Assembly (NCBI GenBank): GCA_963734115.1 | Contig: CAVTFV010000015.1 | Coordinates: 2,481-66,480, forward strand | Origin: an uncultured Acidobacteriota bacterium | Lineage (GTDB): Bacteria > Actinomycetota > Acidimicrobiia > Spongiisociales > ZC4RG35 | DNA length: 64,000 nucleotides | Direction of reading: 5' to 3' | Shown: positions 5,336-30,532 of the stretch, piece after piece | Layout: each line of letters begins with the position of its first letter | Position numbering within the stretch: the first letter of the stretch is position 1 | Notes under the pieces: generated by a model | Seen by the model: the letters and a program-made list of their open reading frames with translations, nothing else | What the model was told of the DNA's origin: nothing | Database searches by the model: none | Made by a program: the position numbers and the translations under genes

Positions 5336-5363
5336 TTCACCCGCAAGGTCCTTATGTCGATAT
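5336..5363 (+). promoter_or_regulatory. Putative sigma-28/WhiG-type promoter
   Basis: TTCA(5336-5339)-N16-GTCGATAT(5356-5363), 7 nt before GTG at 5371. Confidence 0.5.
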
Positions 5364-5370
5364 CGAGATC

Positions 5371-5748
5371 GTGCTGGATTTCTACTTCGGCTACGCGATG
5401 GGTCAGCAGACCGCCACGAGGGCCGCCTCCCTGGCCCGTTCCGCCGCCGCCGCCGACGGCACCAGGCACAGCAACCGGATCGAGGACCTGAACGAGAGGG
5501 TCGACCGGCTGGTGATAATCATGCGGGCAACTCTGGCGCTCCTCGAAGAGCAAGGCATCACCCCCGAGCGGCTGATGGCCAAGATCGACGAGCTCGACCT
5601 CCAGGACGGAGTGGACGACGAACGGCTCCGCGACCTGATCGTCGAGTGTCCCTCATGCCAGTCGAAGGTTGCTCCCGGGTTGCGCAACTGCCAGCTGTGC
5701 GGGACCGAAGTCCGAGCCGACACCGGGCACCCGCTAGCCAACATCTGA
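5371..5748 (+). CDS. Hypothetical protein with coiled coil and C-terminal zinc ribbon
   Basis: IEDLNERVDRL coil; CPSC-x10-CQLC. Confidence 0.7.
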   Translation: MLDFYFGYAMGQQTATRAASLARSAAAADGTRHSNRIEDLNERVDRLVIIMRATLALLEEQGITPERLMAKIDELDLQDGVDDERLRDLIVECPSCQSKVAPGLRNCQLCGTEVRADTGHPLANI

Positions 5749-5793
5749 CCTACCCGCGCAATTCGGGAACAACGCCCTCAATACACTTCGGCG

Positions 5794-7230
5794 ATGGGCA
5801 GCTTCGACGAGGTTCACGGCCCTGAGGGGGTGCGTCCTCACTACCAGGTGTTGATGAATCGTCTCTCCGAGATCGGAGACGCCGAGCTCAGCGATCGTCT
5901 CGGGCTGCTCGATTCCTTCTTCCGCACTCTCGGTATCACTTTTGCCGTCAGCGGTCACGAGGGCGGCCTCGAGCGCACCTGGCCGATGGACCTGGTGCCC
6001 CGGATCATCCCGTCTGACGAGTGGAGTCACATCGAGTCCGGGCTCGTCCAACGGGTAAGCGTCCTCAACCGCTTCCTCGACGATCTCTACGTCGGGGGTC
6101 AGCAGGCGATCAACGACGGCATCATCCCCCGCTGGCTGGTCGAGTCGGCCGACGGATATGTCCGAGAAGCTCACGGCATCCCCGCCCCCCGGGGCTCTCG
6201 GTGCGTGGTCGCCGGGATCGACATCGTCCGCGACGACGAGGGGACATACCGGGTCCTCGAAGACAATCTGCGGGTGCCGAGCGGGATCTCCTATGTCCTC
6301 GAGAACAGGGTGGCGATGACCCGGATCCTGCCGGTCGGTTTCGCCAGCCATGTCATCCGGCCCGTCGACCACTACGGGGCGTCGCTGCTTCGTGCTCTAC
6401 GCGCCATCGCCCCACCCAACGCCGATGATCCCACCGTGGTCGTTCTGACTCCCGGTGTGGCCAACTCGGCCTACTTCGAGCATGCCTTCCTTGCTCGGCA
6501 GATGGGGATCGAGCTGGTGGAAGGCCGTGACCTCCTGGTCGACGACCGTCACGTCTCCATGCGCACCACCAAGGGCCTCAAACGTGTCGATGTGATCTAC
6601 CGGCGGGTCAACGACGAGTTCCTCGACCCCGTCGTCTTCCGCCAGGACAGCCTCCTCGGCGTCCCCGGTCTGCACGGTGCGGCCCGGGCCGGCACGGTGA
6701 CAATCGCCAATGCCATCGGGAACGGCGCGGTCGACGACAAGGGCGTGTATCCCTACATCCCCGCCCTGATCAAGTACTACATGGGCGAGGAACCGATTCT
6801 CCCCAACGTCACCACCTATCTCCCCTGGGAACCGGACCAGCTCGAGCTCATCCTGGGCCGGCTCGATCGGCTGGTGGTCAAGCCGGTTGCCGAGGCCGGC
6901 GGATACGGGATCGTGATCGGCAGCGTGGCCGACGAGGCCACCCTCGAGGCCACCGCCGCCGCGCTCCATGCGAACCCGAGGGGCTACATCGCCCAGGAGA
7001 TCGTCCAGCTCTCCACCCATCCCACATTCGTCGACGGGCATCTGGAGCCCCGTCACGTCGACCTGCGCCCGTTCGTGCTCAGTGGGGACAGGATCGAGGT
7101 GGTGCCCGGTGGCCTGACACGGGTGGCCATGCGGAAAGGGTCCCTGATCGTCAACTCCTCACAGGGCGGTGGATCCAAGGACACATGGGTGCTGAGCAAC
7201 GGGAGCGGGCATGCTGTCGCGACACGCTGA
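5794..7230 (+). CDS. Circularly permuted type 2 ATP-grasp protein
   Basis: DLVPRII, VLEDNLRVPSGISY, NSAYFEHAFLA, DVIYRRV, PRHVDLRPF, NSSQGGGSKDTWV. Confidence 0.93.
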   Translation: MGSFDEVHGPEGVRPHYQVLMNRLSEIGDAELSDRLGLLDSFFRTLGITFAVSGHEGGLERTWPMDLVPRIIPSDEWSHIESGLVQRVSVLNRFLDDLYVGGQQAINDGIIPRWLVESADGYVREAHGIPAPRGSRCVVAGIDIVRDDEGTYRVLEDNLRVPSGISYVLENRVAMTRILPVGFASHVIRPVDHYGASLLRALRAIAPPNADDPTVVVLTPGVANSAYFEHAFLARQMGIELVEGRDLLVDDRHVSMRTTKGLKRVDVIYRRVNDEFLDPVVFRQDSLLGVPGLHGAARAGTVTIANAIGNGAVDDKGVYPYIPALIKYYMGEEPILPNVTTYLPWEPDQLELILGRLDRLVVKPVAEAGGYGIVIGSVADEATLEATAAALHANPRGYIAQEIVQLSTHPTFVDGHLEPRHVDLRPFVLSGDRIEVVPGGLTRVAMRKGSLIVNSSQGGGSKDTWVLSNGSGHAVATR

Positions 7231-8164
7231 GGACCTCTTCTGGGTGGGCCGCTATGTCGAGCGGGCCGAGGACACGGCCCGCATGCTCGACGTGACCTAT
7301 CACAACCTCCTCGAATCCCCGGGCGACGGAGCGGAAACCACCTGGGGCGAGCTGCTCGAGGTCCTATTCGTAAATGCCCTCTACACCGGTCCGTTGGAGA
7401 GCAGCGCCGTCAGCAGTTATCTGGTCGCTGATCGCGACAACCCCGGCTCGATCATCTCGGCGGTGGAGCGGGCCCGTGACAACGCCCGCGGCCTCCGGGA
7501 CCGGATCTCGACCGAGTTGTGGGAGGCCATCAATGTCTTCCATCTCGATCTGGCCCGCGCCGACTTCCACCTCGATCTCGACCGTCGGGCCTACGAGGTA
7601 TTCCGGAGCATCAAGAGCAGGTGTCAGCTGATCAGCGGCGTCGCCGCCCAGACCATGCCCCGGGACGAGGGTTATCGCTTCATGCTGCTGGGCCTTCTTC
7701 TCGAGCGCGCCGAGATGACCTGCCGCCTCCTCTCCGTCCGCTATGCCCGTCTCGCCGGTGGCGATGGCCAGTCAGGGTTTCACGCCTGGGTGTCGGTGCT
7801 CAAGTCGGTCTCGGCCTACGAGGCCTATCTCAAAGCGCATGACGCCTCACTCGACCCGACCGATGTCCTTCAATTCCTTCTGCTCGACGAGGAGTTCCCT
7901 CGCAGCGTCCTCTATTGCCTCCAGCAGGTGGAGCGCCTGATCGATCGCCTCGCCGGCTCGAGTCAGCAGACCAGCATGGAGCGGGCTGTGGGCCGGGTGC
8001 GGGCCCATACCGAGTTCACCGACATCCCCACAATCGTCGACGGACGGCTCGACCCGTTCCTCGAGGAGCTACAAAAAGAGATCTACGAGGTCTCCGACGA
8101 GGTGGAGGCCCATTTCTTCCGGGCCGGCACCGATCTTCAACTCCACTTCCAGAGGTGGGCATGA
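7211..8164 (+). CDS. Alpha-E domain protein
   Basis: MLSRHAEDLFWVGRYVERAE, ARDNAR, LERAEMT, FPRSV. Confidence 0.92.
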   Translation: MLSRHAEDLFWVGRYVERAEDTARMLDVTYHNLLESPGDGAETTWGELLEVLFVNALYTGPLESSAVSSYLVADRDNPGSIISAVERARDNARGLRDRISTELWEAINVFHLDLARADFHLDLDRRAYEVFRSIKSRCQLISGVAAQTMPRDEGYRFMLLGLLLERAEMTCRLLSVRYARLAGGDGQSGFHAWVSVLKSVSAYEAYLKAHDASLDPTDVLQFLLLDEEFPRSVLYCLQQVERLIDRLAGSSQQTSMERAVGRVRAHTEFTDIPTIVDGRLDPFLEELQKEIYEVSDEVEAHFFRAGTDLQLHFQRWA

Positions 8165-28776: not shown

Positions 28777-28782
28777 ACACAG

Positions 28783-29986
28783 CTACATATGGCCGATGAC
28801 CGCGTCGCCGAATTCGGAGGTCTTGACCTCGGTGGCGTCGTTGGTGAGACGGGCGAAGTCGTAGGTGACCGTCCTGGCCTTGATCGCCCCCTCCAGTCCC
28901 TGGATGATCAGATCCGCCGCCTCGGGCCATGCCAAGATAGCGGAACATCATCTCCCCGGAAAGGATCACCGATCCAGGGTTCACCTTGTCTTGATTGGCA
29001 TATTTGGGGGCGGTGCCGTGGGTCGCCTCGAAGACGGCCACACCGGTGTCGTAGTTGATGTTGCCCCCGGGAGCGATCCCGATACCCCCCACCTGAGCGG
29101 CGAGAGCGTCCGAGATGTAGTCGCCATTGAGGTTGGTGGTGGCGATGACGTCGTAGTTGGCGGGGCGCGTGAGGACCTGCTGCAGCATGGCGTCCGCAAT
29201 CACGTCCTGAACCAGCAGCTTGTCACCCGGCTCGCCGCCGCTGTCCTCCCATGACACCGCCACGTCGGAGAACTCTTCCTTCACCAGCTCGTAGCCCCAG
29301 CTGCGGAAAGCCCCCTCGGTGAACTTCTGGATGTTCCCCTTGTGTACGAGAGTCACCGACTCGCGCCCGTTGGCCAGGGCGTATTTGATGGCCGCTCGGA
29401 TCAGACGCTTGGAACCGGTGATCGAGATCGGCTTGAGGCCGATCCCGGAATCGGGGCGGACCTCCCATCCGTATTCCGACTTCACCCATTCGATGAGGCG
29501 GGCAGCATCCTCGGTGTTGGCCTCGAGCTCGAGCCCGGCGTACACGTCCTCGGTGTTCTCACGGAAGATCACCATGTCGACCTGACCGGGGTCCTTGACG
29601 GGCGAAGGCACGCCCTCGAACCAGCGAATCGGGCGGACGCAGGCGTACAAGTCCATGATCTGTCGGAGGGCCACGTTGAGGGAGCGAATGCCACCTCCAA
29701 CGGGTGTGGTCAACGGCCCCTTGATCCCGACCAGCTGGTCACGGAATGCGTCGACCGTCTCATCGGGTAGCCACGATCCGGTTTCGGTGAAGGCCTTCTC
29801 CCCCGCCAGGACCTCCTTCCATGCCACCGCGCGCTCGTCGCCGTATGCGCCCTTGACCGCGGCATCGAACACGCGAATCGAGGCCGCCCAGATATCGGGG
29901 CCTATCCCGTCACCCTCGATGAACGGGATGATCGGGTCATCGGGCACGACGAGACCGTCCGGGCCCATGGTGATGGACGTTGCCAT
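28783..29986 (-). CDS. icd: Isocitrate dehydrogenase, homodimeric NADP type (frameshift near 28930)
   Basis: [53 protein letters not shown]-terminus TVTYDFARL in another frame. Confidence 0.94.
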
Positions 29987-30059
29987 TGAGACTCCTGGGA
30001 ATCGATAGGAAATGCCGAGGTTAGCTGCGCGCCGCCTCGTGAATTTCCGAGCCAGACGG

Positions 30060-30497
30060 CTAGATGCTCGAGTCCTCCAGGGTCCCGCTCACCTTTGCGA
30101 GGTCGAGGCGGTAGACGAAACAGGCAACGACCCGATCGCCCATATCCCAGGAATCGGCGGTCGGTACCAGCCATCCGAAGTCGAGAGCGGAGCTTTGGTA
30201 GTCGAGGCCGACGAACGGGTCGAAGGCGTCGAGACACACCTCGTCGGCCTGAGCCTGGATGGCTATCTCGCCGGGAAACACCTCTCCGTCGACGGTGACG
30301 ACCGCATAGACCTCGTTGTCGTGAGGCTCGGCGCACTCGACCAGGGGGACTTCACCGATCTCTTCGATTTCGCCCAGAGCCATGTCGCCGTCGTCGAAGC
30401 AGTCACCGACGGCCAGCTCGAACACATTGCCGGAGCATGCGGCAAGGAGCAACGTCAAGGCGACCAGACCGGCCATTGTCCGCAGTGGGCTGCGCAT
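30060..30497 (-). CDS. Septum formation (Septum_form) family lipoprotein
   Basis: Lipobox [27 protein letters not shown]...GDRVVAC. Confidence 0.82.
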
Positions 30498-30504
30498 CTG
30501 GAGA

Positions 30505-30532
30505 ATTTCGGCCGAATCGGCGCGATTCTTTA
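30505..30532 (-). promoter_or_regulatory. Putative sigma-28/WhiG-type promoter
   Basis: Minus strand TAAA-N16-GCCGAAAT, 7 nt before ATG at 30497. Confidence 0.62.

Follow-up and report, generated by a model that had tools for sequence, protein, structure and literature searches.

Three sites in a 64,000-nucleotide (nt) stretch of DNA from an uncultured soil member of the Acidimicrobiia (hereafter the window, numbered from its first letter), which precede a zinc-ribbon gene, the second of two Tad pseudopilin cassettes and a Septum_form lipoprotein-like gene, are probably promoters at which transcription is initiated by RNA polymerase together with the one WhiG factor (sigma-28 family) that the genome encodes, a reading to which a probability of roughly 0.8 was assigned. 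The decisive evidence for the three sites was conservation. When the regions upstream of orthologous genes were checked, as an earlier note made from the letters of the window had proposed, the boxes were found to be retained at 18/18, 10/10 and 13/13 loci. The genome is a metagenome-assembled genome that is 92% complete and 2.87 Mb in size.

Positions and conservation of the three probable promoter sites

The boxes were located by sequence, and the genes that follow them were assigned by Pfam, as listed here.

5335-5340, plus strand: promoter 1, -35 box CTTCAC (TTCA at 5336-5339).
5356-5363, plus strand: promoter 1, -10 box GTCGATAT, followed by 7 nt and then GTG 5371.
5371-5748, plus strand: zinc-ribbon gene, start GTG 5371, 125 amino acids (aa).
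19482-19487, plus strand: promoter 2, -35 box CTTCAG (TTCA at 19483-19486).
19503-19510, plus strand: promoter 2, -10 box GCCGAAGT, before Tad cassette 2.
19556-20161, 20158-20715 and 20712-22205, plus strand: Tad pseudopilin cassette 2, consisting of a tadE-like, a second tadE-like and a tadG-like gene (Pfam TadE, Tad).
30528-30533, minus strand: promoter 3, -35 box TTAAAG (TAAA at 30532-30529).
30505-30512, minus strand: promoter 3, -10 box GCCGAAAT, followed by 7 nt and then ATG 30497.
30060-30497, minus strand: Septum_form lipoprotein-like gene, start ATG 30497, 145 aa (PF13845, 39.5 bits).

The positions, the shared motif and the 16-nt spacing were exactly as the earlier note had placed them. 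At each site the spacer measured 16 nt when counted from the four-letter -35 element (TTCA or TAAA) and 15 nt when counted from the six-letter box, and all three -10 boxes were of the GCCGA(T/A)AA-like form, with a CGA core that was invariant in the orthologues. The published consensus for WhiG promoters is T(A/C)AA-N16-GCCGATAA or CTCA-N16-17-GCCGA (10.64898/2026.01.14.699351). The -35 element at site 3 (TAAA-N16) is an exact instance of the published T(A/C)AA form, and the TTCA of sites 1 and 2 stands in the correct register but outside both the T(A/C)AA and the CTCA strings. At sites 1 and 3 only 6-7 nt separate the -10 box from the start codon, so leaderless mRNAs are predicted for these two genes.

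Every one of the 18 genus genomes with the zinc-ribbon gene has site 1 as CTT(C/G/A)A(C/G/T)-N15-[GA][CT]CGATA, placed 6-7 nt ahead of the start codon. Over 16 distinct sequences, the column identity was at least 0.9 in CTT.A. and CCGATA; the initial G of the -10 box reached 0.8, and the spacer and flanks approximately 0.3-0.6. This promoter accompanied its gene across two different upstream contexts, and it was also seen in 14 of 16 loci from public Acidimicrobiia records, a set that coincides in large part with the same genus; CTCAAG-N15-GTCGAT was seen in one of the three evaluable loci from other families. At site 2, GCCGA[AT] was invariant in the ten close orthologous loci, each of which carried CTTCAG, TTCAAG, CTTTAG or CTACAG as the -35 box in the same register. 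At site 3, 13/13 genus loci had T(A/C)AAG-N15-G[CT]CGA[AT] at 6-7 nt from the start codon, with TAAAG as the -35 element in every locus except one, which has TCAAG.

The frequency of the motif was assessed by counting intergenic matches located no more than 200 nt upstream of a gene, and other spacer lengths served as the control. The degenerate pattern of the earlier note matched the window 3 times, where 100 shuffles led to an expectation of 0.03, and the whole 2.87-Mb genome 8 times, 3 of which were the window sites; since the pattern was derived from the same sites, the window figure overstates the case and the two counts by themselves prove little. Among the other forms, T[AC]AA-N16-GCCGA gave 13 promoter-proximal matches vs 0-6 at other spacings, T[AC]AAG-N15-GCCGA gave 10 vs 0-3 at 21 other spacings, and T..AG-N15-GCCGA[AT] gave 19 vs 1-8. 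A broad class taking in all three window sites yielded 27 matches vs a mean of 9.7 (standard deviation 4.2, maximum 19), and for TTCAG-N15-GCCGA[AT] all four matches in the genome were promoter-proximal (vs 0-3). An iterative position weight matrix was discarded because of drift, in which its training set expanded from 59 to 147 sites.

WhiG, RsiG and promoters of the same type elsewhere in the genome

As the earlier note had remarked, no sigma gene of this group is present in the window. A sigma factor of the FliA/WhiG family, the finding on which the proposal had been made to depend, is encoded elsewhere in the genome, at G000:C8:274396-275061, and scored 271.5 bits with TIGR02479 against a curated cut-off of 189.6. 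It was the only protein in the genome above that cut-off, and eight further sigma-70-family matches fell below it. The best solved relatives were chain A of Protein Data Bank (PDB) entries 6pfj and 6pfv (274 bits), with FliA entries at no more than 165 bits; we take these two entries to be the Streptomyces venezuelae complex of WhiG, RsiG and cyclic di-guanosine monophosphate (c-di-GMP). The gene lies in the order dprA-xerC-whiG-rpsB-tsf, and whiG of Streptomyces presumably has the same rpsB-tsf neighbours. Flagellin (PF00669) and FlhA (PF00771) were searched for in the 92%-complete genome and neither was found; together with targets that are pilus and envelope genes, this supports the earlier suggestion that the regulon serves adhesins and the envelope and not flagella.

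The boxes might instead be promoters that are read by another alternative sigma factor, either of group 3 or ECF-like (extracytoplasmic function), from among the sub-threshold matches. The existence of the eight further matches and the looseness of the -35 boxes (TTCA, TTGA, TAAA, TCAA) would suit such an assignment, but the invariant GCCGATA(A/T) -10 box is a hallmark of sigma-28-family promoters, a single protein of the genome exceeds the FliA_WhiG cut-off, and the pilus-gene targets match the published WhiG regulon of Rubrobacter, so that a different sigma factor was judged quite unlikely.

The search for an rsiG gene was likewise successful. A protein of 176 aa, encoded at G000:C14:70901-71431 on the minus strand, matched PF22802 in two stretches (97.8 bits) and 6pfj_T over its full length (E 4.4e-15). 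Of 41 genomes of the order that were searched, 40 yielded WhiG and 40 yielded RsiG, and the one genome with no match (G033) was the same for both. In its exact form, E(X)3S(X)2R(X)3Q(X)3D, the described c-di-GMP signature of RsiG retrieved no relevant protein from the genome, and RsiG surfaced when one mismatch was allowed. Motif 1 reads E-x3-S-x2-R-x3-H-x3-D, with His for Gln, in all 23 aligned sequences of the order; at the corresponding position of motif 2, the 16 rows from the genus show His and the 7 from other families show Gln. The capacity for c-di-GMP synthesis was represented by one REC-GGDEF gene (approximately C3:9000-10300, minus strand), which is split by a frameshift in the assembly. 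A model of the complex of WhiG, RsiG and two c-di-GMP molecules scored 0.82, the best control scoring 0.00; 116 of 157 solved complexes attained the mark set for this score, as did 2 of 215 mismatched pairs. At least 80% of the contacts were common to the runs, and the predicted local distance difference test (pLDDT) value of the partner was at least 78. Since a like complex has already been solved, the model shows only likeness to it as regards binding of WhiG by RsiG in this genome, and neither binding itself nor dependence on the ligand.

The link to pili proved stronger than could be seen from the window, because a Flp pilin gene, pilT and a CheA-like kinase gene bear the same type of promoter. 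The best match in the genome, CTCAAG-N15-GCCGATAT at C7:104691-104716, lies 44 nt before a Flp pilin gene that belongs to a tandem array of four (Flp_Fap, 43.7 bits). In the genus, CTCA(A/G)G-N14-16-[GA][CTA]CGAT was located approximately 40 nt upstream of at least one flp copy in 14 of 17 flp loci, and the WhiG-type motif was found in 0/10 flp loci from other families. Eight flp loci from other families of the order (L143-L149 and L152) carry an upstream palindrome, ATAGGTCG.CCGACCTAT, which suggests that flp genes outside the genus may be regulated differently. Upstream of pilT (C10:90347-90373), TTCA(G/A)N-N15-GCCGATAA was present in 25 of 27 distinct genus regions. The gene for an Hpt-HATPase-CheW-REC (CheA-like) kinase, at C15:77059-77084 on the minus strand and beyond the window, was preceded by TTCAG-N15-GCCGATA in 27/27 distinct upstream regions, two of which were read by eye. 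The conservation of TTCA before these two genes indicates that it is a regular -35 box in the genus.

By motif alone, further predicted targets include two DUF4388 proteins, an M23 peptidase, a VanY peptidase, a SpoIID-domain protein, a CAP-domain protein, two kinases and a receiver protein. Beyond both boxes, promoter 3 (30505-30520) and the VanY promoter (G000:C16:161835-161868) have GCCGATTCGGCCGA..ATTCTC in common, although the genes downstream of them are unrelated.

Several points weigh against the assignment of the three sites to WhiG. It was derived from sequence comparisons, and the relatives compared are close kin and not independent samples. The gene calls came from a crude home-made caller, so genes that it missed count as "intergenic" and the promoter-proximal numbers are approximations. 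The His that replaces Gln in the RsiG signature means that control by c-di-GMP is not assured. TTCA at sites 1 and 2 fails the exact -35 strings of published searches, and TTCA-N16-G[CT]CGA alone was not enriched genome-wide (7 vs 1-9); the expectation that the motif would exceed background thus held for the T[AC]AA and T..AG forms at the correct spacing and failed for this looser form by itself. At site 3, the TAA within TAAAG doubles as the folD stop codon, which accounts for part of the conservation of the -35 box. At site 2, the spacer is fairly conserved too, which leaves room there for another kind of element.

The last two of these points belong with an explanation in which the conservation of some of the boxes, or of all, has another cause, either a regulator's operator or signals for leaderless translation, and in which their resemblance to sigma-28 promoters is partly coincidence. 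It is most plausible at site 2, and the additional element that site 3 has in common with the VanY promoter also fits it, but it is nevertheless unlikely given that at site 1, and before pilT and the CheA-like kinase gene, the boxes keep their sequence and distance with a freely varying spacer in between, that the enrichment is specific to one spacing, and that the two boxes are common to seven different gene families. Chance resemblance at the three window sites, with the canonical sites elsewhere in the genome as the only real ones, was considered very improbable. The post hoc definition of the earlier pattern, the lack of enrichment of TTCA-N16-G[CT]CGA and the failure of three weaker candidates (see below) would all agree with it, but chance does not account for boxes that are retained at 18/18, 10/10 and 13/13 orthologous loci with their distance to the start codon unchanged. 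The assignment of all three sites to WhiG was therefore preferred.

Weaker candidates, a possible fourth site and the gene map of the window

The remaining features of the window, with genes assigned by Pfam, are as follows.

102-968, minus strand: T2SSF (TadB/C-like) gene, a weak match.
962-3990, minus strand: tadA/cpaF-like, tadZ/cpaE-like and cpaB-like Tad assembly genes (T2SSE, CbiA, RcpC).
4023-4051, minus strand: possible fourth WhiG-like promoter, upstream of cpaB, consisting of CTCGAC (4051-4046), 15 nt and GACGATAG (4030-4023).
4853-5275: SnoaL-domain gene.
5794-9033: trio of CP-ATP-grasp, alpha-E and transglutaminase genes.
After the trio: NPCBM-domain gene (real start TTG 9138), ATP-binding cassette (ABC) transporter genes, bpa and sdhCAB.
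16662-16689, plus strand: sigma-70-like promoter before Tad cassette 1, consisting of TTGTCA (16662-16667), N16 and TAGCCT (16684-16689), conserved and not of WhiG type.
16768-18616, plus strand: Tad cassette 1.
Downstream of cassette 2, minus strand: mdh, nadCBA, icd, the Septum_form lipoprotein gene, folD, purH and purN.

Three weak candidates had also been put forward, at 16710-16736, 9092-9118 and 4007-4035, and none of them was conserved in relatives; the first two adjoin conserved sigma-70-like promoters. For 16710-16736, the -10-like ACCGAACG was not retained, and a sigma-70-like promoter was retained instead: TTG(T/C)(C/A)(A/T)-N16/17-TA(G/T/A)CCT was visible in 10/10 loci of the cassette-1 type (L074-L083). 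The two pseudopilin cassettes accordingly differ in promoter type. The candidate at 9092-9118 was rejected in that ACCGATGA was retained in close kin only and abuts GAAGGAG, the ribosome-binding site of TTG 9138; upstream of it, in the interval 9040-9075, the sigma-70-like pair TTCTCA-N17-TTAGGG (with TAGGGT as the likely -10) was conserved. For the plus-strand candidate at 4007-4035, neither TTCA nor GTCGAACC was retained, and the conserved blocks fit the minus strand better.

A possible fourth WhiG-like promoter, at 4023-4051 on that strand, which would serve cpaB-tadZ-tadA, was absent from the earlier list. Of 11 distinct orthologous regions, 9 had both of its boxes, and the spacer between the boxes was variable. 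The GACGAT/GACGA variant of this site was not enriched genome-wide, so its assignment to WhiG is tentative. The start codon of cpaB is uncertain, as ATG 3990 is not retained in several orthologues.

Side observations were made in several of these regions. The 5' leader of cassette 1 (16662-16760) includes GACCACTCTGGGTAG...GTGGT, a conserved element with the potential to pair, and the word CCACTCTGGGT recurs upstream of the WhiG promoter of cassette 2 (approximately 19410-19435). A conserved GGATTTATCATCGATTTAGGG block surrounds the TTCTCA-N17-TTAGGG pair ahead of the group of NPCBM and ABC genes.

The gene set for a Tad/Flp (type IVc) pilus was confirmed by Pfam, with Flp pilin, the TadE/TadG pseudopilins and the CpaB/TadZ/TadA machinery all represented. 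The N-terminus of the Septum_form protein, as read from the translation, has a signal-plus-Cys pattern. In the 125-aa protein the zinc ribbon is C-terminal, with weak matches to DZR and Zn_ribbon_3 and to nothing else in Pfam, and a query of the ESM Atlas with this protein returned only clusters of hypothetical proteins. The neighbours of the zinc-ribbon gene vary on both sides, a CP-ATP-grasp gene coming after it in 12 of 22 loci (L039-L060), and the gene with its own promoter behaves as a self-contained unit. A scan of 5200-5900 for terminators and sigma-70 promoters found none, and an Rfam search of positions 1-34000 of the window matched no family.

Single-base frameshifts split many genes of the assembly, including sdhA (approximately 14434), nadB (26998-27223), tadG of cassette 1 (17905-18616), the REC-GGDEF gene (G000:C3, approximately 9000-10300) and xerC (L001, 386-1433). 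RNA contigs of relatives have one extra base at 14433/14434, which points to assembly errors behind the gene splits. In four metatranscriptome runs from one study, 8-17% of words were matched, as contigs that carry no information on transcription starts or expression; most of the pieces were 90-95% alike.

Proposed mechanism and comparison with known systems

Three elements of the mechanism are inferred, namely which sigma factor reads the sites, the positions of the transcription start sites (TSSs), and the direction and ligand of the control exerted by RsiG. Region 4 of the sigma factor would read a loose -35 box, T(T/C/A)(C/A)A, mostly followed by G, and region 2 a strict -10 box, G(C/T)CGA(A/T), with transcription starting approximately 7 nt past the latter. 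For the zinc-ribbon and Septum_form lipoprotein genes the predicted start would coincide with the start codon, giving leaderless mRNA, and for Tad cassette 2 a leader of approximately 40 nt with a ribosome-binding site is predicted. The same sigma factor appears to drive the genes for Flp pilin, PilT and the CheA-like kinase and, judged by motif, may also drive those for the cell-wall enzymes of the M23, VanY and SpoIID types. A regulon with such targets would couple pilus subunits and pilus retraction with remodelling of the envelope. By homology, RsiG loaded with c-di-GMP would hold WhiG in check.

A broader proposal can be offered only as speculation and is on balance doubtful. In it, the WhiG-RsiG switch would constitute a unicellular surface-attachment programme of soil Acidimicrobiia that co-ordinates two pilus systems, one comprising the Tad/Flp subunits and pseudopilins and the other the PilT retraction ATPase with a Chp-like kinase, and links them with enzymes that remodel the septum and the cell wall and with small leaderless genes. 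The duplicated cassettes would be split between a housekeeping-type promoter (cassette 1) and a WhiG promoter (cassette 2), and the order-wide change from Gln to His in RsiG might signify an altered affinity for the ligand, a different ligand or sequestration of WhiG that is independent of any ligand.

The analysis provides a testable regulon for an uncultured group, the Acidimicrobiia, an abundant lineage in soil; it ties a sigma factor presumably controlled by a second messenger to pili of adhesion. That WhiG-RsiG controls type IV pili is already known from published work on Rubrobacter, and a prediction for the whole phylum exists. The Tad/Flp targets are new and extend the link between WhiG and pili from type IVa (published) to type IVc; also new are the Acidimicrobiia lineage, the predicted leaderless architecture of the promoters and the His-for-Gln substitution in the c-di-GMP motif of RsiG. 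The conserved His variant and the small zinc-ribbon gene, which has one of the best-conserved promoters examined here, are leads for further work. Literature searches on WhiG with Flp pili and on WhiG with Acidimicrobiia returned only incidental matches.

Flagellar class III promoters read by FliA/SigD have the form TAAA-N15-GCCGATAA. The promoter architecture is the same here, and in both cases genes for filament subunits are placed under a sigma-28-family factor, these being flagellin there and Flp pilin and pseudopilins here; the systems differ in that this genome yielded neither flagellin nor FlhA and in that the anti-sigma factor is RsiG. The targets of WhiG in Streptomyces venezuelae are regulators of sporulation (whiH, whiI). 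The 6pfj/6pfv WhiG-RsiG complex is the closest solved relative of both proteins described here, and its RsiG has the same twin-motif architecture. In contrast to S. venezuelae, the targets here are pilus and envelope genes, no sporulation is implied, and the Gln of the RsiG motif is replaced by His.

A 2026 bioRxiv preprint predicts WhiG1 and WhiG2 regulons phylum-wide, with type IV pili among the targets in five named families, and has in common with the present analysis both the consensus and the idea that WhiG2 and RsiG control diverse functions (10.64898/2026.01.14.699351). Its main text contains no mention of Acidimicrobi-, Tad, Flp or leaderless, and its supplementary tables may list related genomes or targets. 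That search accepted as -35 box only an exact T(A/C)AA or CTCA (10.64898/2026.01.14.699351), a condition that excludes sites 1 and 2; with TTCA a conserved -35 box in the genus, real sites escape searches for exact -35 strings.

In Rubrobacter radiotolerans, WhiG-RsiG controls type IV pilus genes, and mapped TSSs are available there for 12 of 20 predicted sites (PMC8325347). Its (RsiG)2-(c-di-GMP)2-WhiG system resembles the present one in that both organisms are non-sporulating actinobacteria in which no flagellar genes were found and in which WhiG has RsiG as a partner, and in that WhiG-type promoters (TAAA / GCCGATAA-like) precede pilus genes in both (PMC8325347). RsiG has two motifs here, with His for Gln in motif 1, vs one motif in Rubrobacter (PMC8325347). 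Unlike those of Rubrobacter, two of the promoters described here are predicted to be leaderless and the lineage is that of uncultured Acidimicrobiia, and the targets include subunit genes of the Tad/Flp (type IVc) pilus, the word "tad" not occurring in the text of the Rubrobacter paper (PMC8325347).

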